A DNA stretch of 32,000 bases, taken from Promethearchaeia archaeon. GTDB lineage: Archaea > Asgardarchaeota > Lokiarchaeia > Sigyniarchaeales > SOKP01. The notes beneath the pieces are model-generated. The model was not told the DNA's origin, ran no database searches, and saw only the letters and a program-made list of their open reading frames with translations. Location of the stretch: the NCBI GenBank assembly GCA_046497275.1, contig JAWOFX010000113.1, positions 10,869 to 42,868 on the forward strand, written 5' to 3'. The position numbers were made by a program, and so were the translations under genes. Shown one piece after another: positions 5,461-21,601 of the stretch. Each line of letters begins with the position of its first letter. Positions within the stretch are counted from its first letter, which is position 1.

Positions 5461-6273
5461 ATGAAAGTAATTAAGTTAGCTGAACGAAAAAAGATCCATA
5501 AAGCTGCAGAATTATTGGTTAACTCTAAAGAAGCTATTGCTTTAACCGGTGCAGGAGTATCTACAGAGTCAGGTATCCCAGATTTTCGTGGAGAGGGAGG
5601 GATTTGGGAAAAATATAAGCCCGAAATCTATGGAAATATAAAAAGCTTTATTAAAGACCCGACTAAATTCTGGAAGATGGCAGAAAAAGTCGCTCCTAAG
5701 TTATTTTCAGCCGAACCAAATGCAGGTCATATTGCATTAGCCGAATTAGAGGATATGGATCTCATTAAAGCAACTATAACACAAAATATAGACGAATTAC
5801 ATCAAAAGGCGGGTTCAGTTATAGTGTATGAAGTTCATGGAAATATTAATCGATTTACGTGCTTTGGTTGTAGAGCCAGCTATACTAAGGATCAAGTTAT
5901 GAGAAAATTAAAGAAAGAAAAACATTATCCTCCTCAGTGTGATGTTTGTTCTGCACCTCTTAAGCCTTCAGTTGTATTATTCGGAGAAAGTTTACCCACA
6001 TTCGAGATATATCAGTCTCAAGCTTTAGCAGAGAAAGCGGATGTAATGTTGATAGCAGGTTCCTCATTAACAGTAGATCCGGTGGCAGATCTTCCATTAT
6101 ACACGTTAGGGAACGGAGGAAAATTAATTATTGTAAATGATAAAAAAACCCATCTAGATGAACGAGCAGAAGTAGTGATTAATCATAAAACTGGGATGGT
6201 TTTACCTTTAATCGTTGAGGAAATAAAAAAGATTAAAACGTCTGGAGAATTTGAAGATGTCTCCAAGGCATAA
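5461..6273 (+). CDS. cobB: Sir2-family NAD-dependent protein deacylase
   Basis: GAGVSTESGIPDFRG, TQNIDELH, catalytic HG, CxxC..CxxC zinc site, LKPSVVLFGE, GSSL. Confidence 0.95.
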   Translation: MKVIKLAERKKIHKAAELLVNSKEAIALTGAGVSTESGIPDFRGEGGIWEKYKPEIYGNIKSFIKDPTKFWKMAEKVAPKLFSAEPNAGHIALAELEDMDLIKATITQNIDELHQKAGSVIVYEVHGNINRFTCFGCRASYTKDQVMRKLKKEKHYPPQCDVCSAPLKPSVVLFGESLPTFEIYQSQALAEKADVMLIAGSSLTVDPVADLPLYTLGNGGKLIIVNDKKTHLDERAEVVINHKTGMVLPLIVEEIKKIKTSGEFEDVSKA

Positions 6274-6306
6274 TAATTATCTTATTTTAGTCAAAGCGAT
6301 CTATAA

Positions 6307-7899
6307 ATGAAAGATGAACTGAATGTAATTATTAAAGATTTGCGTAATATAGATATAAAATTTGGATTAATTTATCCAAATATATACTCCATCGGAATGT
6401 CATCTTATTCTATTCGATTTTTATATTCTTATCTAAATTCCTTTGAAAATATAGCATGTGAACGGATTTTTCTCCCTCCAAAAATTAAATATCCTGCATC
6501 TATGGATTATAATTCTATAGATGTTCTTAGAAGCGTGGAAAATAAGCTTTTACCCGAGGATTTTGACATTTTAGGATTTTCTATTCAATTTGAAAATGAT
6601 TTTAGAAATATTTTATGGATATTAGAAAAGGGACGAATTCCCTTACTAAATAATAAGAGAGATAATAAAGAAAAAAAAATTGATCCCCCTTATCCATTGA
6701 TCATAGGAGGTGGTCCCGTAGCTACTTCTAATCCTATACCATTATCTAATATTTTTGATGCTTTTTTCATAGGAGATGCTGAGCCTAATTTAATGAATTT
6801 TTTAGAGCTTTTTATGAATTATAGGTATAATAATCAAAATAAACAAAATTTCTTACAAGAATTAAAAAATATCAAAGGAATCTATATTCCATCATTAAAC
6901 AATAGGACCAATCGAGCGATTTTAAAAGATTTAGATCAATCACATATGCCCATTTATCAAATTATGGCAAGAAGTGATTTAAAGGGTGGAAGTTTCGAGG
7001 ATACATATTTTATAGAAGTAAACCGAGGTTGTCCTTATAAATGTAAATTTTGCATCTCATCTTTTCATAATCGACCATTTCGCAATAGAAGTTTCCAAAA
7101 TATTAAAGAAATGATAGATATTGCGTCCGAAAATCTTGAATTTGAAAGAATAAGCTTAATAGGTTCATGTATCTCGGGACATCCCCAATTTTATGATATT
7201 TGTAAATATATTTTGAAAAAAAATAAAAGACTTTCAATTCCCTCGATCAGAATTGATCATATCTCTCCAAAAATTATCGATATATTAGAGAAAGGTGATA
7301 TTAAGACAATTACTATTGCTCCTGAATCTGGTTCTGAAAGTTTAAGATATGAGTTAGGAAAAAAAATATCAAACGAAAAGCTTTTTGATATTCTAGTTCA
7401 AATGAAAGAATCAAAGATCAGTAATGTTAAAATGTATTTTATAATTGGGTTACCAAATGAAAAAGATGAAGATATTGAAAAACTTATTAGACTAGTGAAA
7501 AAGATGGATAGTCTAGGCTTTGATAAGAACTCTCTGAAAATAAATATCAATCCATTAATTCCTAAACTTAACACACCATATGAGAAAGAAGTGGATTATT
7601 ATATTGAAAACAAAATAAAAATTCTAAAGAAAAGATTAGAAAAAATTGAAAATGAAATATCCAATCTAATTAGTATTAATTTAAAAACTCAAAAGATAGA
7701 TTCTTTAATAAAAAATGCCCGTTTACAAACTGTTTTTTCTTTAGGAAATAAAAATATCTCGGATCTTCTTATAAATTATTATAATAAAGGAGCAAATTTC
7801 GGAGCTTTACGAAGAGCTGAAAATAATTCAAAAATAAAAATAAATGATTATCTATTAGAAATTAAAAACTGTTATAGCCCTTGGAAATATGATCTTTAA
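6307..7899 (+). CDS. Radical SAM protein with N-terminal B12-binding-like domain
   Basis: IEVNRGCPYKCKFC (CxxxCxxC), IIGGGP, TIAPESGSE, YFIIGLP. Confidence 0.88.
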   Translation: MKDELNVIIKDLRNIDIKFGLIYPNIYSIGMSSYSIRFLYSYLNSFENIACERIFLPPKIKYPASMDYNSIDVLRSVENKLLPEDFDILGFSIQFENDFRNILWILEKGRIPLLNNKRDNKEKKIDPPYPLIIGGGPVATSNPIPLSNIFDAFFIGDAEPNLMNFLELFMNYRYNNQNKQNFLQELKNIKGIYIPSLNNRTNRAILKDLDQSHMPIYQIMARSDLKGGSFEDTYFIEVNRGCPYKCKFCISSFHNRPFRNRSFQNIKEMIDIASENLEFERISLIGSCISGHPQFYDICKYILKKNKRLSIPSIRIDHISPKIIDILEKGDIKTITIAPESGSESLRYELGKKISNEKLFDILVQMKESKISNVKMYFIIGLPNEKDEDIEKLIRLVKKMDSLGFDKNSLKININPLIPKLNTPYEKEVDYYIENKIKILKKRLEKIENEISNLISINLKTQKIDSLIKNARLQTVFSLGNKNISDLLINYYNKGANFGALRRAENNSKIKINDYLLEIKNCYSPWKYDL

Positions 7900-11578: not shown

Positions 11579-11611
11579 AGAATGTTATTATGAATCCTTT
11601 AATAACATTCT
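11579..11611. repeat. Perfect 12-bp inverted repeat with 9-nt spacer
   Basis: AGAATGTTATTA-tgaatcctt-TAATAACATTCT in the divergent GH2/histone intergenic region. Confidence 0.8.
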
Positions 11612-11985: not shown

Positions 11986-12216
11986 GAACAAGTAATTAAA
12001 TTTAAAAAATCATCATAGTCTTCCTTTATATAAGCATCTCTATCTTTTTATTATTTAACACACACAATCTTAAATTAGAATAGAAAACAAATAAATAATC
12101 CCTGCAAATCGCCTTTACCCTAATAATTTTTTTGAACTAACAATTTTGGATTTCATATTTGTTTTTCTATTTCTCCCTTCTTTTTCTTAACTTTTTCGAA
12201 ATCAAGAAATAGAGGC

Positions 12217-12738
12217 TTAATCGGAGATTTCTTGTCCTATATTTTTATCGATAATGAAGAAATCAATTGATAAAACACTTTTTAATCTTTCTAAATCTTG
12301 TTTTAAATCTCTTATTCTATTATAATCTCCGGAAACAGCTATAATTTCAATACATTTTTCGTATTCTATATGAACATGCATTGTTGAGACAATGACATCA
12401 GCAAAATGATGTTGGATATCATTATTTAAAATTAAATCTGTCTGATGAATATTTGCATATATCGGTCTTGATTTAAAATCATGATCGTGTGTATCGGTAT
12501 CGTTTTCATGAATGTGATCTTGTTCCTCTCCTATATGTTCATGAGACATTATCATTGCTATACATCCAACAACATCACCTGCACTTTCGGGAAGATTCTC
12601 CTCTATAGCCATATATCTGTGCATTGCTTTTCGAACAGCATCAGATCTAGACACCTCCAATTTCTTTCGAAACTTCTCAAATTCTTGATAAAGAGTTTTG
12701 GGAAGGGAAACAGTAAAACGTTTGTATTCTTCACTCAT
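12217..12738 (-). CDS. nikR: NikR-family nickel-responsive regulator with His/acidic insertion
   Basis: Ribbon-helix-helix N-terminus (KRFTVSLP..SRSDAVRKAM); QHH...STMHVHI...CIEII Ni-binding motif. Confidence 0.88.
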   Translation of the reverse strand: MSEEYKRFTVSLPKTLYQEFEKFRKKLEVSRSDAVRKAMHRYMAIEENLPESAGDVVGCIAMIMSHEHIGEEQDHIHENDTDTHDHDFKSRPIYANIHQTDLILNNDIQHHFADVIVSTMHVHIEYEKCIEIIAVSGDYNRIRDLKQDLERLKSVLSIDFFIIDKNIGQEISD

Positions 12739-12843
12739 TTGAATTTTATGTTTCTTTTTTAACTATTTTTATTAATCTTACACTTTTTAAATATATTTGA
12801 GATGAAAATAATTTATAACTGTTTCTTATCAATTAATTTTTCT

Positions 12844-14298
12844 TTAAAATGAATCAAATATTCCTATTTTTCCCTCTATAGGTTTTAGGATTTTAATACC
12901 TTCATTATCGATGGAGTATTCTATAAAATGTTTAGAATGATTCGAATCTCTCATTTTTAATATACCTATGCCACGAGTCATTAGACCGTCGCGTTCAAAA
13001 TATCTTAATAAAATTATTGCATCAGCAAGAGTTGAGATATGTCCCATTCCTTTATTAAAATGATCTGAAAATGTAGGAGTAGTCGTTGTAAAGATTGCTA
13101 TAATATTATTTTCTCGGATGAAAAGAAAAAGATTAATGAGTGATTGTCTAAAAGTAAGGTTGCTAGTTATTCGTTCTAAAGCAGAAATACTGTCAATATA
13201 AATTCTATCCGGTTTAAAGGATTGTATTTTTGATTTCATATCCACAATAAGCTCTTCGATTCCTTGAGATTCTGGATAAATACAGTTCAACATAAATATA
13301 CCATCATTTTCCGGTTGTTCTAAATCTATATTCCAATTACGAGCTTTCTGGAGAATCTGTTCTCGACTCTCCTCAAAATTGAACATAATGCATTTTTCCC
13401 CATTTTGTAAAGACCCCTCTAACAATAGAAGTGTTATTAATGTTTTACCTGTTCCTGTTTGACCAGAAATCAGGATTGATGAGCCCTCGAAGAACCCTCC
13501 TCCCACCATATCATCGAGTTCGCTATAACCTGTAGATTCTCTTTCCCGCTTGGCAGGTAGTTCATTAGGATTTCTTTCAAATGAAATAATTATTATTCCT
13601 TCATTTTTTTTGATGGTGAAGGACTCTCTACCCTTTTTATGAGGCACTCCTCGATATTTTAAGATTTCAATTGTTCTTCTACGATGCTCTTCAAAAATAG
13701 TATTCTGGAGGAGGATTACATTATCACTAACGAAATCAAGAATATTATAATGTGAATCTTTTCCAAATTCTTCATATTGTTCCATTGTGATGATAGAGGT
13801 TACCGATAACGACTTTAAACATGATTTTAATCTGATAATTTCCTTCCGAACAATTGATTTATCAGGAAATCTATTGAATAAAACAGCGATAGAATCTAAT
13901 ACTACACGTTTTGCATTGATTTTTTCTACTGCATTCTTAATTCGAATAATTAAACCACTTAAATCATAATCGCCTCGTACTAGAAAATCATCCTCTATAC
14001 GCGGGGAAATATCAACAAACTCCCAAAATCCTGAATCCTTATATTTTTGAATATCTAATCCAAAATCTTTCATATTAATTATTATATCTTCGGGTGATTC
14101 TTCAAAAGTGATGAAGACTCCAGGATCTTTTGAATGGTTTATTCCTCCAATGAGAAACTGTACACAAAAGGTACTTTTCCCGCTGCCAGGCGTACCTGAA
14201 AGTAACGTCATTCTATTTTCCGGTATTCCACCCATCGATAAAATATCGAATCCATCAATTCCACTCGGAATTTTTTTTATGCTTTTCATAAAATTCAA
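12844..14298 (-). CDS. kaiC: Circadian clock protein KaiC (double RecA-like domain)
   Basis: CI P-loop GTPGSGKST, FEE, RRTIEILKYRG; CII P-loop GQTGTGKT, FEES, DSISAL, phosphosite HISTLAD, LKMRDS. Likely ATG start at 14289. Confidence 0.95.
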   Translation of the reverse strand: MNFMKSIKKIPSGIDGFDILSMGGIPENRMTLLSGTPGSGKSTFCVQFLIGGINHSKDPGVFITFEESPEDIIINMKDFGLDIQKYKDSGFWEFVDISPRIEDDFLVRGDYDLSGLIIRIKNAVEKINAKRVVLDSIAVLFNRFPDKSIVRKEIIRLKSCLKSLSVTSIITMEQYEEFGKDSHYNILDFVSDNVILLQNTIFEEHRRRTIEILKYRGVPHKKGRESFTIKKNEGIIIISFERNPNELPAKRERESTGYSELDDMVGGGFFEGSSILISGQTGTGKTLITLLLLEGSLQNGEKCIMFNFEESREQILQKARNWNIDLEQPENDGIFMLNCIYPESQGIEELIVDMKSKIQSFKPDRIYIDSISALERITSNLTFRQSLINLFLFIRENNIIAIFTTTTPTFSDHFNKGMGHISTLADAIILLRYFERDGLMTRGIGILKMRDSNHSKHFIEYSIDNEGIKILKPIEGKIGIFDSF

Positions 14299-14316
14299 GT
14301 AATTTTGAGGTGAAAT

Positions 14317-14568
14317 TTATATGAAAAAATCCTTTTCAGAATTAGAAAAATCTCCTATAAATCTCCTGGTTGGTCCAGGTAGGGTTCTTATCAAAAAAGG
14401 TGTTGCTATAACTCCAGCTTGTTCCGCAACTTGGGGATTATTCAATATATCAATAATCGTTAAATCATAATCAATATTCTTTAAACTTTCTTTTAAATTG
14501 CTTAATGCTGTCTTAGATTTGAGATCATTAGAACCGGCTAAAAATAATAAAAATCTTACCTCGGACAT
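14317..14568 (-). CDS. kaiB: Circadian clock protein KaiB
   Basis: LLFLAG, IIDILNNPQVAE, IATPFLIRTLPGPTRRFIGDFS closely match KaiB; directly upstream of kaiC. Confidence 0.93.
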   Translation of the reverse strand: MSEVRFLLFLAGSNDLKSKTALSNLKESLKNIDYDLTIIDILNNPQVAEQAGVIATPFLIRTLPGPTRRFIGDFSNSEKDFFI

Positions 14569-14803
14569 TTTTTTATATTCTATTTTTTTTTCTATACCTT
14601 ATCATATTACCTATAAAAAAAAGATTTAAAAATGTTTCTTATGAAAATTATTGATATTAATAATAAATAAGATTAAATATCAAAACTCAATCTTTAATTT
14701 TAATTTCGTAACAACATTTTTGAGAGAAACTTTAAAAACTAGAAATAGTCTTTACTAAGATCTGAAATTCCTAAAATATGTAAAAGTAATTTCAATTAAA
14801 ATA

Positions 14804-15538
14804 TCATTTACTAATAAATATAGCAATAGGTACACTTGCTTCGCGCCATTGAGCTATCTTTCCGGAAAATTCGAAATCCATGCGTGATCTGCCATGATCT
14901 CCTATAATAATCATTAATGAACCATTTCTTAATTGCTTATAATTACTTAGTATCCATTTATCTGTTCGATTTATGAGTTTTTCAATTAATTCCTCAGGAG
15001 TCTGTTGCCTTAATCTTTGTTGCTGTTTATGAAGATTTTCAAAATCTAAATAATGCATCCAAGAGAGATCATAATTATTTATAGCTTTTGCTGATTCTAT
15101 CCATGTTGCCATGTCAGTATCTTTTGCAATAGAATTAGTTCCCCCATCATAACGCTCTATATCTTTTTTACGTCCAACAAAACAAGTATTTTTTCCATTT
15201 TCATTAATATATTTAAGTAGATGAAATCCATTCGGTTCGTATTCAAACCCACCGAACATTAATTGGTGAAGAACTCCCAAGGTGTATGGATTCTTGGTGC
15301 TTAAAAGTGTCATTATTTCAGATTTTTGGATCATAAACTCGGGTTTAAAATACGTAATTTCAAATAATCCCGCATTAGAGATTAAATTAATCGAAATCCG
15401 CTTAACTCCTTTATATCTTTCAGTGATCTCTTTGATTGGATGTGGAATAGTATTTGTTGGGGGATCCAAATCAAGCAATTTTATTAAAGTTGCCGGTAAT
15501 TGAGAAAGATAAGCCTTTACAGTTTTTAATTCACTCAT
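14804..15538 (-). CDS. Alkaline phosphatase-superfamily (phosphodiesterase/PglZ-like) protein, apparently degenerate
   Basis: WMHYLDFE and MIIIGDHG motifs; no clear N-terminal metal-binding DG motif. Confidence 0.5.
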   Translation of the reverse strand: MSELKTVKAYLSQLPATLIKLLDLDPPTNTIPHPIKEITERYKGVKRISINLISNAGLFEITYFKPEFMIQKSEIMTLLSTKNPYTLGVLHQLMFGGFEYEPNGFHLLKYINENGKNTCFVGRKKDIERYDGGTNSIAKDTDMATWIESAKAINNYDLSWMHYLDFENLHKQQQRLRQQTPEELIEKLINRTDKWILSNYKQLRNGSLMIIIGDHGRSRMDFEFSGKIAQWREASVPIAIFISK

Positions 15539-17684: not shown

Positions 17685-18974
17685 TTGAAAAATATGAAAG
17701 TTTTGTATATTGATACTGAGAACTCAGGAATTTCTGGTGATCTTTTTTTAAGTGCTTTACTTGCCTTAATCAAGAATCAGAATAAGTTAATCGCAGAATT
17801 AGAAGAGCTGAAAAATTATTTACCAGGAGTGAAAAGACTTAATATCAAATTAATTAAAATAGAAGTCAGCGGTATCATCGTGAATAAATTGATAATTGAA
17901 TTAGAGGAGAAAAAAAATCATAGAAGCGCCTTAGATCTTAAAAAAGCGTTGAAAAATTTTTTAGATGATAAAGAGTTTTCTGAAGCTGCTAAAAAGTACG
18001 CTAAAGATGTTTTAGATTCCTTAATTAAAGCTGAATCTTCGGTTCATAATAAATTAGAAGATAACATTCATCTTCATGAATTAAGTTCAGTTGATACATT
18101 AATTGACATTTTAGGAGTAACAAAAACTCTAGACATTTTAGGCGCTTTTAGAGGTGATTTGAGTATTTATACTAGCAAACTTCCCTTAGGCGGGGGTAAC
18201 ATTGAAGCAGCTCATGGTACCTTACCAATACCCGCTCCTGCGACGAGTAAAATCATTGAGAATTCTAAACTTATTGTATATCTCGGTCCTATTGACGATG
18301 AATTAACCACACCTACAGGGGTGGCTCTTTTAGTAAATCTAAACCCAAAAATAAATAAAATTGAATTTAATCTCAAAAAAGTTGCATATAGTACTGGAGA
18401 AAAAGTATTCGATGAGTTTCCAAATATATTCCGCATTCTTTTTGGGAAAAAATACTTAGATTCTGAATTTGCTACACATCTTATTCAATACAGAGAAAAA
18501 GTTTCTGTTATTGAGACTAATGTTGATGATGTATCGGGAGAAATAATTGGTGATTTCATTGAGCAAATGGAAAATAAGGTTTTAGATATTCAAGTGATTC
18601 ATTGCTTAACTAAAAAAAATAGACCGAGTTATATTATTAAAATTTTATGTGATCCTGAAAATAAATTCAAGATCATTGAGGAAATTTTGGAGAATTTGGG
18701 AACATTAGGAGTAAGATATTACGACATTGACAGGATATGTGTTGATAGGGAAATTAAATCTCTAAATATTGAAATTGATAATACTATTTATTCTGTGAGA
18801 TATAAGATTTCTTTTATAATAAAAGAAAATCAGAAGAAGATTATTAACATTAAACCCGAATATGAAGATCTTAAAAAATTAAGAGATATAACTAACTATT
18901 CCATTAAAAGACTAAAATCAATAATTCTTCCAAAATTAATGAATGATGTCTATAAAGATAATGATATAGGTTAA
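17685..18974 (+). CDS. larC: Nickel-pincer cofactor biosynthesis protein LarC
   Basis: GISGDLFLSAL, HLHELSSVDTLIDI, AHGTLPIPAPAT, ELTTPTG, IETNVDDVSGE, TLGVR. Likely ATG start at 17694. Confidence 0.92.
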   Translation: MKNMKVLYIDTENSGISGDLFLSALLALIKNQNKLIAELEELKNYLPGVKRLNIKLIKIEVSGIIVNKLIIELEEKKNHRSALDLKKALKNFLDDKEFSEAAKKYAKDVLDSLIKAESSVHNKLEDNIHLHELSSVDTLIDILGVTKTLDILGAFRGDLSIYTSKLPLGGGNIEAAHGTLPIPAPATSKIIENSKLIVYLGPIDDELTTPTGVALLVNLNPKINKIEFNLKKVAYSTGEKVFDEFPNIFRILFGKKYLDSEFATHLIQYREKVSVIETNVDDVSGEIIGDFIEQMENKVLDIQVIHCLTKKNRPSYIIKILCDPENKFKIIEEILENLGTLGVRYYDIDRICVDREIKSLNIEIDNTIYSVRYKISFIIKENQKKIINIKPEYEDLKKLRDITNYSIKRLKSIILPKLMNDVYKDNDIG

Positions 18975-20818: not shown

Positions 20819-21601
20819 CTATTTATTTTTTATTCTCCTTGAAATTAAAGCTGCTGAAACACCTGCTCCAAATCCATTATCAATATTTACTACTAATAAC
20901 CCAGGACTACACGATTGCAGCATTGTATTTAAGGCACCTTCTCCTTTTCCCCCGACTCCATAACCACTGGAGACAGGAACTCCGATAATTGGAACATCTA
21001 CTAATGCGGCCACTACACCCGGGAGTGTTCCTTCCATTCCAGCACAGACAATAATAACATCCACCCCACTCTCTATCATATCTATGAGTGGCTTGAAAAT
21101 ACGATGGATTCCAGCGATGCCAACATCATAACTAGATATGACTTGGCATCCCATAACATCTAAAATAATTTTAGCTTCTTCCGCTACAGGTATGTCTGAA
21201 CTGCCTGCGGTAATTACTCCAACGGTGCCTTTTTTTTCTTCTGGGATTGCATCCGTTTCTCTTATAATAATTGTTTTTGCTAGTTCATTAACTTCTATAT
21301 TATAATTTCCTTGAGTTGAATAAACTTCTTTTAACGTTTTCTTCTGATTTTTAGTCACTCTGGACACTATCACATAGGGATGTTCCTCCAAATACGATTT
21401 TACAATACTTAAAAGTAGATCAGAATTCTTGTTTTCTGCAAAGATTACTTCAGGTACACCAGTTCTCATCTGACGAAAAATATCTAATTGTGCTAATCCT
21501 TCCACATCTTTTATAAAATTAGCTCTTAGTAGTTTTTCTGCCTCTGAAAGTTCAATTTCTTTATTTAATAATTTTTCTAAAATTTCTCTTATATTTGCCA
21601 T
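20819..21601 (-). CDS. larB: Nickel-pincer cofactor biosynthesis protein LarB (AIR carboxylase family)
   Basis: RTGVPEVIFAENK, TAGSSDIPVAEEA, DVGIAGIHR, AGMEGTLP, PVSSGYG, VVNIDNGFGA. Confidence 0.93.
   Translation of the reverse strand: MANIREILEKLLNKEIELSEAEKLLRANFIKDVEGLAQLDIFRQMRTGVPEVIFAENKNSDLLLSIVKSYLEEHPYVIVSRVTKNQKKTLKEVYSTQGNYNIEVNELAKTIIIRETDAIPEEKKGTVGVITAGSSDIPVAEEAKIILDVMGCQVISSYDVGIAGIHRIFKPLIDMIESGVDVIIVCAGMEGTLPGVVAALVDVPIIGVPVSSGYGVGGKGEGALNTMLQSCSPGLLVVNIDNGFGAGVSAALISRRIKNK

Follow-up and report, generated by a model that had tools for sequence, protein, structure and literature searches.

A compact, probably KaiC3-related kaiB–kaiC pair without KaiA in a Lokiarchaeia genome

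The kaiB and kaiC genes described here lie side by side on the minus strand of a 32,000-nucleotide (nt) stretch of DNA from a Promethearchaeia archaeon (GenBank assembly GCA_046497275.1, contig JAWOFX010000113.1, positions 10,869–42,868), which we call the window and whose positions serve as coordinates throughout. On balance, we think that the two genes encode a functional KaiB–KaiC signaling pair that works without KaiA, is related to the KaiC3 systems, probably came from bacteria, and has since persisted in a single family of Lokiarchaeia. We base this view on the observations that both genes are intact and conserved, evolve under purifying selection, are present in RNA libraries, retain the catalytic residues and phosphosites, and have diverged together. 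The most likely role of the pair is that of a phospho-switch that follows the ATP/ADP state of the cell, acting as an hourglass or as an energy or stress sensor rather than as a clock; its binding, enzymology, and output are what we infer below.

The sole known purely protein-based clock is believed to have its primitive form in KaiBC systems without KaiA, and to our knowledge a mechanism has been worked out for just one such system, that of Rhodobacter, which is of the KaiC2 type. The window holds a compact, apparently expressed, KaiC3-related KaiA-free KaiBC in an Asgard archaeon with two rhodopsins. Its KaiB is apparently unable to switch folds and would allow the contribution of the fold-switch delay to be tested directly, and its KaiC, which has neither an A-loop tail nor a coiled-coil, would test whether the autokinase is on by default. 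These two natural simplifications make the locus a useful test case, and through it the question whether Asgard archaea track day and night or their energy state becomes testable. The novelty is modest: the genes are auto-annotated as KaiB and KaiC in public metagenome-assembled genomes (MAGs), and constitutively thioredoxin-like KaiBs are known. The closest public proteins are indeed NCBI-named circadian clock proteins of Promethearchaeota/Lokiarchaeota MAGs, and a literature search combining KaiB or KaiC with Asgard names found no paper linking them.

An intact kaiB–kaiC pair in an Asgard genome

The first-pass annotation of the window, made from the letters alone, had described an adjacent kaiB and double-domain kaiC, and both open reading frames (ORFs) are borne out by family scores above the cut-offs. 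The kaiB gene (14317–14568, minus strand) encodes a "mini-KaiB" of 83 amino acids (aa) that matches PF07689 at 61.5 bits (cut-off 27). The kaiC gene (12844–14289, minus strand) encodes a protein of 481 aa, with residues 1–240 forming CI and residues 241–481 forming CII, that gives two PF06745 matches summing to 367.8 bits and scores 532.8 bits with NF006799, "circadian clock protein KaiC" (cut-off 408). The E-values of 8e-160 for KaiC and 6e-17 for KaiB exclude a chance match. Neither protein reaches the canonical equivalog models, with KaiC scoring 438.3 bits for TIGR02655 (cut-off 546.25) and KaiB scoring 50.9 bits for TIGR02654 (cut-off 145.3) and 53.7 bits for NF006798 (cut-off 110). The likely start of kaiC is the ATG at 14289, which is also the start in a database copy (P0003) and in the gene as called in a close relative; the alternative TTG at 14298, used by the ORF lister, would add three residues. 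A 27-nt spacer (14290–14316, minus strand) separates the kaiB stop codon from the kaiC ATG and is spanned by RNA-library contigs.

The functional motifs that had been read from the sequence were each located in KaiC, whose residue numbers refer to the 481-aa form. Its two RecA-like domains both have Walker A and Walker B motifs and a catalytic glutamate pair. The CI domain carries the Walker A motif GTPGSGKS at residues 32–39 (14173–14196, minus strand), including K38, an aligned catalytic pair E63/E64, a B-loop segment at residues 93–113 (13951–14013, minus strand) that is the predicted KaiB docking site, and the arginine region LKYRG beginning at residue 210. The CII domain carries the Walker A motif GQTGTGKT at residues 276–283 (13441–13464, minus strand), including K282, an aligned catalytic pair E306/E307, and LKMRDS beginning at residue 444. 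The phosphosite pair S419/T420 lies within HIST (13030–13035, minus strand) and is equivalent to S431/T432 of Synechococcus KaiC. In the KaiC alignment, T420 is invariant and S419 is nearly so.

Both genes are under purifying selection. In comparison with a relative whose proteins are 92–93% identical, kaiB has a ratio of nonsynonymous to synonymous substitution rates (dN/dS) of 0.106 and kaiC one of 0.107, with dS at ~0.3.

The pair is also probably expressed. RNA-library contigs from three salt-lake metatranscriptome studies are 100% identical to the window. Their coverage takes in kaiB and its upstream neighbor, nikR, and portions of kaiC, and two of them bridge the kaiB–kaiC junction (run X6 record 24, 14248–14591; run X5 record 17, 14289–14586). 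The contigs over kaiB, from all four runs of the three studies, end at 14577–14592, and none covers 14641–14761; since the runs are kept as contigs only, this uncovered stretch and those in kaiC cannot be read as silence. A candidate kaiB promoter (14586–14622, minus strand) comprises a TATA-like box, T8-ATAG, at ~14611–14622 and the region of this common 5′ end. The contigs end ~22 nt before the kaiB ATG and ~25 nt past the box, a weak hint of a transcription start. Separately, a single contig of run X2 (depth 5) joins 14628–14649 to 14765–14985 through nine other letters and so leaves out the greater part of the intergenic sequence preceding kaiB.

The host is Asgard, as the first-pass annotation had supposed, and of Loki type; a bacterial or chimeric contig, which would have undercut that proposal, is contradicted by the genes and synteny of the window. 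The genome bin measures 3.85 Mb and is 98.9% complete, with an estimated contamination of 4.4%. The window carries ribosomal protein eS1 (147–968), an archaeal histone-fold protein, and Asgard-typical genes, its GC content is even at 26–34%, and synteny extends for 16 kb with contig SHMW01000067.1 ("Promethearchaeota archaeon isolate BC3") and for 12 kb with two other assemblies. The combination of eS1, even GC, and Promethearchaeota synteny indicates that the contig is Asgard, not bacterial or chimeric.

Within this genome there is exactly one KaiB and one double-domain KaiC. The KaiA model of Pfam has no match in the 98.9% complete bin. However, this model is blind to the response-regulator-type KaiA3-like proteins encoded upstream of kaiB3–kaiC3 in Crocosphaera, Hydrococcus, and Lamprobacter, and for this reason the genome was searched a second time with the C-terminal half of one KaiA3-like protein. 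The best match had an E-value of 0.19, which amounts to none, and the reported absence of KaiA holds for both types of query.

KaiB is rare in archaea, as the first-pass annotation had stated: Schmelling et al. (PMC5520375) list it in just four archaeal genera, none of them Asgard. A word-indexed search with the 83-aa KaiB returned only two proteins owing to an index limit for so short a query, and we used an exhaustive search instead, which found 1951 representatives at E ≤ 0.001. Among 400 Asgard genomes, 17 have a KaiB match at E ≤ 1e-6, and ~11 have a solid, near-full-length one (>50 bits). All of these ~11 genomes belong to the class of the window, and the weak matches in other classes cover only part of the model. 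KaiB is present in 8 of 134 genomes of the window's family and, counting the window genome itself, in 5 of 7 of its genus.

Ancestry and relation to known Kai systems

The relationships of KaiC were examined with a quick tree of 98 rows and a careful tree of a 48-row subset. The references, taken from named genomes, were KaiC1 sequences with kaiA–kaiB upstream, KaiC3 sequences with a KaiA3-like gene upstream, and a KaiC2-type sequence with kaiB downstream and a long tail. The window KaiC falls in a clade made up of Lokiarchaeia-family sequences only (support 100 and 100/100), with a stem of 1.3–1.6 substitutions per site. In both trees this Loki clade stands apart from KaiC1 and is distant from KaiC2, and KaiC1 itself also arises from the KaiC3-type radiation in the careful tree. 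Bacterial KaiC3-type sequences are the sister of the Loki clade in one tree and enclose it in the other, with backbone supports of 41–90. A phylogeny against KaiC1, KaiC2, and KaiC3 was among the checks suggested in the first-pass annotation; it separates the window KaiC from the first two, but the exact place within or beside the KaiC3-type radiation is unstable at those supports. Rooting on the single long KaiC2 branch proved unreliable, as the placement of the Loki clade differs between the trees. The window KaiC is neither of the KaiC1 nor of the Rhodobacter KaiC2 type, and the sequences suggest a KaiC3-related ancestry.

KaiB sequences from these loci group in a corresponding clade (support 97), which indicates that the pair was inherited together, and across the Loki clade kaiB and kaiC are strictly adjacent and co-diverging. 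The order kaiB-then-kaiC is common to nearly all of the nearest bacterial relatives. Transfer from bacteria to Asgard archaea is the likelier direction, given the wide spread of the genes in bacteria and their presence in ~3% of Asgard genomes. Another genome of the same class (G168; L118:5259–8946) has two tandem kaiB–kaiC pairs, B93–C507 and B101–C506, with canonical full-length KaiBs (~100 bits) and KaiC tails, that sit among bacterial sequences in the quick tree. A separate transfer for this tandem was considered, but a constraint joining all 16 Asgard KaiCs scored better, by +37 in log likelihood (p = 0.866 in the approximately unbiased test), so that a single Asgard origin of kaiBC would be compatible with these sequences and is not rejected.

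The closest known group comprises KaiB3–KaiC3 (with KaiA3) of Synechocystis sp. PCC 6803 and the bacterial KaiC3-type operons (PMC11372060; 10.1101/700500; "group III" of PMC12081879). The window KaiC matches KaiC3-type sequences at ~445–485 bits and 43–47% identity, compared with ~400–407 bits for the KaiC1 of the same cyanobacteria. The resemblance extends to the gene order, the Ser–Thr phosphosites, the absence of a KaiA1-type tail, and a B-loop that, as in KaiC3-type sequences, is one residue longer than that of KaiC1. There are also differences. KaiC3 systems have a KaiA3-like gene, encoding a receiver and a KaiA-like C-terminal domain, upstream of kaiB3, whereas the window genome has none; KaiB3 keeps K57, G88, and D90, whereas the 83-aa window KaiB is without all three; KaiC3 has ~20 C-terminal residues that the window KaiC lacks; and the host of the window pair is archaeal, with a distinct clade on a long stem. 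In the KaiC3 system, monomeric KaiB3 reduces the ATPase activity of KaiC3 (10.1101/700500).

The C-terminus sets the window KaiC apart from all of these types. The protein ends near KaiC1 residue 494, with no C-terminal tail and only part of the A-loop, and the whole Loki clade terminates near KaiC1 residue 494–500 with no tail resembling that of KaiC1, KaiC3, or KaiC2.

The hourglass of Rhodobacter (Cereibacter) sphaeroides (PDB entries 8DBA, 8FWI, and 8FWJ) is likewise free of KaiA, and its KaiB binds CI (PMC10076222). There, KaiB-RS binds the post-hydrolysis state of CI, and the ATP-to-ADP ratio drives the hourglass (PMC10076222). In contrast, the window KaiC matches 8DBA at just 257 bits and is 32% identical to the KaiC2-type sequence. 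KaiC2 has a C-terminal coiled-coil extension of ~50–90 residues and forms a dodecamer, whereas the window KaiC has no such extension; the phosphosites are Ser-Ser in KaiC2 and Ser-Thr in the window; and the order kaiC-then-kaiB of the KaiC2 type is reversed in the window. The best PDB match of the window KaiC is instead 8ZN5, the reconstructed ancestral KaiC-beta (494.5 bits, residues 6–475), compared with ~394–416 bits for cyanobacterial KaiC1 structures. KaiC-beta, the ancestor of cyanobacterial and "group III" KaiCs, is described as a pre-oscillator enzyme that shows no rhythm and whose ATPase activity depends on temperature (PMC12081879). It is a synthetic reconstruction with T426 and a full C-terminal tail, however, and the window KaiC is without both. 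The known archaeal KaiB systems (PMC5520375) also combine a full-length KaiC with KaiB and no KaiA, but their KaiBs are KaiB2-like, or KaiB1-like in Methanothermobacter, whereas the window pair is KaiC3-related, Asgard, and has no adjacent kinase.

Predicted KaiB fold and docking on CI

The window KaiB is unusually short at its C-terminus. Only 8 residues separate the GDFS motif from the end of the protein, which coincides with the alignment column of cyanobacterial G88; the LDL/D90 segment is missing, and the K57 column holds Gly. KaiBs of the window subclade (83–92 aa) end 8–19 residues past GDFS, mostly 8–10, whereas typical KaiBs run 14–26 or more residues past it, through a conserved LxGLDL segment. 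Residues K57, G88, and D90 have been named as important for KaiB fold switching (10.1101/700500). In canonical circadian KaiB, the C-terminal segment makes strand 4 of the ground state and helix 3 of the switched one.

The AlphaFold2 (AF2) model of the window KaiB has the order strand–helix–strand–helix–strand–strand followed by coil, which corresponds to the thioredoxin-like state minus its last helix. The same thioredoxin-like topology was predicted with a deep alignment of 99 sequences (predicted local distance difference test, pLDDT, of 90) and with the 12 closest sequences (pLDDT of 85.5), the latter being the setting that told ground-state from fold-switched KaiBs apart (PMC10808063). 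A Foldseek search with the model returned as its top match the KaiB of Legionella pneumophila (4KUN; template modeling score, TM, of 0.86), followed by fold-switched KaiB (5JYT, 5JWR, and 5JWO); bound KaiB-RS was also among the matches, and no ground-state KaiB tetramer appeared in the top 50. The Legionella protein (Lpp1115, 91 aa) and KaiB-TV4 (8UBH, 86 aa) are likewise short KaiBs that are thioredoxin-like without KaiC, and both were predicted and found to be fold-switched (PMC10808063); unlike the window KaiB, they keep the terminal helix segment. The model thus suggests a KaiB that appears unable to fold-switch and has the thioredoxin-like fold competent for binding.

A two-chain model of CI (residues 1–245) with KaiB predicts docking on the B-loop. 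The interaction prediction score from aligned errors (ipSAE) is 0.81 (0.79–0.82 in three runs), compared with 0.01 for the best control, and this mark was attained by 58 of 80 solved complexes and by 2 of 110 mismatched pairs. The runs share at least 90% of contacts, and the pLDDT of the partners is at least 84. In the predicted interface, CI residues 92–119, which include the B-loop, contact KaiB residues 41–58 and 67–77.

Proposed function, alternatives, and gene neighborhood

If the pair works as these features suggest, KaiC would be a hexameric ATPase and autokinase that, because it has no inhibitory A-loop tail and no KaiA partner, would by default phosphorylate S419/T420 when ATP is plentiful. 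The short KaiB, barred from the cyanobacterial ground-state fold, would stay permanently thioredoxin-like, and for this reason could dock on the CI B-loop without a slow fold-switch delay once CI is in its ADP-bound, post-hydrolysis state. Docking would push KaiC toward dephosphorylation or an altered ATPase activity. The module would then follow the ATP/ADP state of the cell as an hourglass or switch and not as a self-sustained clock, and no gene beside kaiBC in this genome would encode its output partner.

Several points weigh against a functional pair of this kind. AF2 tends toward the thioredoxin-like state for KaiB, and the CI–KaiB score shows a likeness to the solved complexes 5JWO, 5JWQ, and 8FWJ that memory of those structures may explain. 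Within CII, the T426-equivalent is Gly in the window KaiC and variable across the Loki clade, and the motif MRDS occurs throughout this clade where MRGS is found elsewhere. No conserved output gene was found beside kaiBC across the Loki-clade loci. The RNA contigs are strandless, and DNA carry-over is possible. Finally, kaiBC of Legionella is described, in the summary given in PMC10671191, as having a stress-response role and no KaiB–KaiC interaction, which counts here because the Legionella KaiB is the closest structure to the KaiB model.

The Legionella case leads to the alternative that the module is a stress-response system with no timing role, in which KaiC is an ATPase/kinase hub for osmotic, oxidative, or metal stress in salt-lake sediment and KaiB binding is optional. 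We consider this possible but unlikely. Beyond the structural match to 4KUN, it draws on the salt-lake origin of the RNA runs and on the frequent presence in the clade of neighboring genes for cation or heavy-metal P-type ATPases, a mechanosensitive channel, rubrerythrin, or NikR. KaiC-like ATPases have also been proposed as general archaeal signaling hubs (Makarova 2017, as cited in PMC13700489), and stress roles of the Legionella and Pseudomonas homologs are summarized in PMC11372060. However, the strict adjacency and co-divergence of kaiB and kaiC across the clade count against it, and the full-length B-loop and a docking model well above its controls would argue for a working KaiB–KaiC interaction. 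The two accounts also overlap, because an ATP/ADP-driven switch could serve either purpose. At the other extreme, a self-sustained circadian oscillator like cyanobacterial KaiABC is highly improbable. The Ser–Thr phosphosites, glutamate pairs, and B-loop are conserved and a rhodopsin-bearing organism probably meets light–dark cycles, but neither KaiA nor KaiA3 was found in the genome, the A-loop tail is missing and T426 replaced, KaiB is without the fold-switch determinants that supply the delay, the nearest reconstructed ancestor does not oscillate, and the TIGR02655 and TIGR02654 scores fall below their cut-offs.

Coupling to nickel is a third alternative, in which kaiBC and nikR form a single operon tied to nickel or metal homeostasis with NikR or nickel status as the input or output. 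We judge it very unlikely. The nikR gene does lie 105 nt downstream on the same strand, one RNA contig (run X2 record 9) runs from the 3′ end of kaiC through all of nikR (12177–12892), the adjacency is retained in two near relatives, and P-type metal ATPase genes lie upstream of kaiB at three other loci. Yet nikR adjoins kaiBC only where the whole 12–16 kb is syntenic, being absent in the congener G006, which has the same kaiBC type, and at six further clade loci; TATA-like AT-rich boxes in the 105-nt spacer fit a separate nikR promoter; the nearby larC and larB-like genes explain a local NikR; and a contig over two genes does not prove one transcript. It is scarcely credible that the pair is instead a piece of bacterial DNA that is decaying or was binned wrongly, whether as a contaminant contig or as a recent transfer with no function. 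In favor of this view one may cite the contamination estimate of the bin, the patchy occurrence of KaiBC among Asgard genomes, and one kaiB of another genome, G017, that is trailed by just 51 kaiC-like codons. The eS1, histone-fold, and Asgard-typical genes, the uniform GC, the synteny shared with two other assemblies and, over 16 kb, with SHMW01, a Promethearchaeota MAG, the Loki-only clade with its long stem, and a dN/dS of 0.11 all speak against it.

A more specific form of the ATP/ADP-following switch would be a day–night hourglass. The first-pass annotation had assumed a dark-dwelling lineage, an assumption that does not survive inspection of the genome: it has two rhodopsins, and the RNA runs with identical contigs come from salt lakes. 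Both rhodopsin genes lie on other contigs; one is a heliorhodopsin (C51:36740–37486, 272 bits) and the other a type-1/schizorhodopsin-like protein of ~200 aa (C156:93873–94445, 94.7 bits). In published work, the rhodopsins of Asgard archaea were interpreted as an indication that these organisms live in upper sediment reached by light (10.1101/385732). The rhodopsins make a day–night role for kaiBC more plausible than had been assumed, without showing one. Heliorhodopsin is not enriched with KaiB (5 of 9 KaiB-positive genomes and 72 of 135 in the family), and 3 of 9 KaiB-positive genomes have the type-1-like rhodopsin compared with 12 of 135 overall, where all three are from one genus and are not independent evidence. 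That a Lokiarchaeia-specific tail-less KaiC and a permanently binding-competent mini-KaiB form an hourglass driven by day–night changes in ATP/ADP, in a rhodopsin-bearing Asgard archaeon of light-exposed salt-lake sediments, is an idea that we would put forward only as doubtful. The type-1-like rhodopsin gene has a gene for a PAS histidine kinase (C156:100506–101546) at a distance of ~6 kb.

As for the output, no histidine kinase is adjacent to kaiBC, as originally noted; the neighbors are nikR, whose spacing of 105 bp was reproduced, and a gene of the alkaline-phosphatase superfamily (14804–15538) that belongs to a cluster common in Asgard genomes. The further suggestion that one of these two neighbors might be an unconventional output is not supported. 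Only the nearest relatives retain the order phosphatase-fold gene–kaiB–kaiC–nikR, and there the surroundings are syntenic as well; at seven other loci of the clade the neighbors differ. Without a conserved partner, comparison of the loci makes nikR unlikely as the output of kaiBC and probably no part of the module, and its presence is accounted for without Kai by larC and the larB-like gene nearby, a nickel-pincer cofactor context. In the congener G006 a cation P-type ATPase gene takes the upstream position, and other clade loci have beside kaiBC a gene for a P-type ATPase of the copper type (two loci), for TFIIB (two loci), or for a mechanosensitive channel, or else a gene pair for ArsR and an Arf/RagA-like GTPase. 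Where the clade branches deeply, kaiBC is flanked by genes for PAS histidine kinases and response regulators. A search of the window genome for orthologs of the flanking PAS kinase and response regulator of one such locus (G004) gave only generic two-component proteins at 28–40% identity; the several PAS kinases (~7) and receivers encoded elsewhere in the genome, which also has TFB paralogs, include none that is clearly orthologous to the kaiBC-linked ones.

Some of these neighborhoods have features of their own. A P-type ATPase gene lies directly upstream of kaiB at three loci of the window subclade (L139:1193–4204, L140:1419–4433, and L019:5143–7800), two of the copper type with HMA and YHS domains and one of the cation type. 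Together with nikR in the window, these show metal and ion genes recurring beside kaiBC in few independent events. In G014 (L021:1813–6860), genes for an ArsR-type helix–turn–helix (HTH) protein and an Arf/RagA-like small GTPase lie directly upstream of kaiB, kaiC, and a PAS kinase on the same strand, and such an ArsR-type HTH and GTPase pair is found 2 kb from kaiBC in another MAG (L142:1621–2514). The G014 kinase downstream of kaiC is split into a PAS part (L021:4928–5746) and a HisKA/HATPase part (5595–6860) in overlapping ORFs of different frames, which could reflect a frameshift, a sequencing error, or a lineage-specific mini-intron; mini-introns have been reported for this lineage.

Reduced versions of the pair occur as well. 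In G282 (L119:6281–7271) and G017 (L025:3129–4056), kaiB (ORFs of 89 and 68 aa) runs into the beginning of a kaiC whose product is a CI-like protein of one domain, 243 aa long and with 48% identity to the window CI. No CII domain was detectable anywhere in the loci examined, and KaiB is thus paired there with a KaiC that has no phosphorylation domain. The G017 stub mentioned above is at another locus (C344; L024:1761–2193), where a window-type 83-aa kaiB is followed by just 51 codons resembling the kaiC N-terminus, and may reflect either a disrupted kaiC or a fault in the assembly.

Elsewhere in the window, an exact TGTTA-N15-TAACA palindrome at 11583–11607, upstream of a 69-aa histone-fold gene, was considered as a NikR site and set aside, as chance alone would give 2.1 occurrences in the window of the pattern with at most one mismatch. 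The nikR gene itself (12217–12738, minus strand) encodes 173 aa with ribbon–helix–helix (RHH) and NikR_C domains, and a His-rich insert of ~30 residues lies between the RHH and nickel-binding domains. Together with larC (17685–18974), which has a role in nickel insertion, and a larB-like gene with an AIR-carboxylase domain (20819–21601), both within 9 kb of nikR, it forms a possible nickel-pincer cofactor island.

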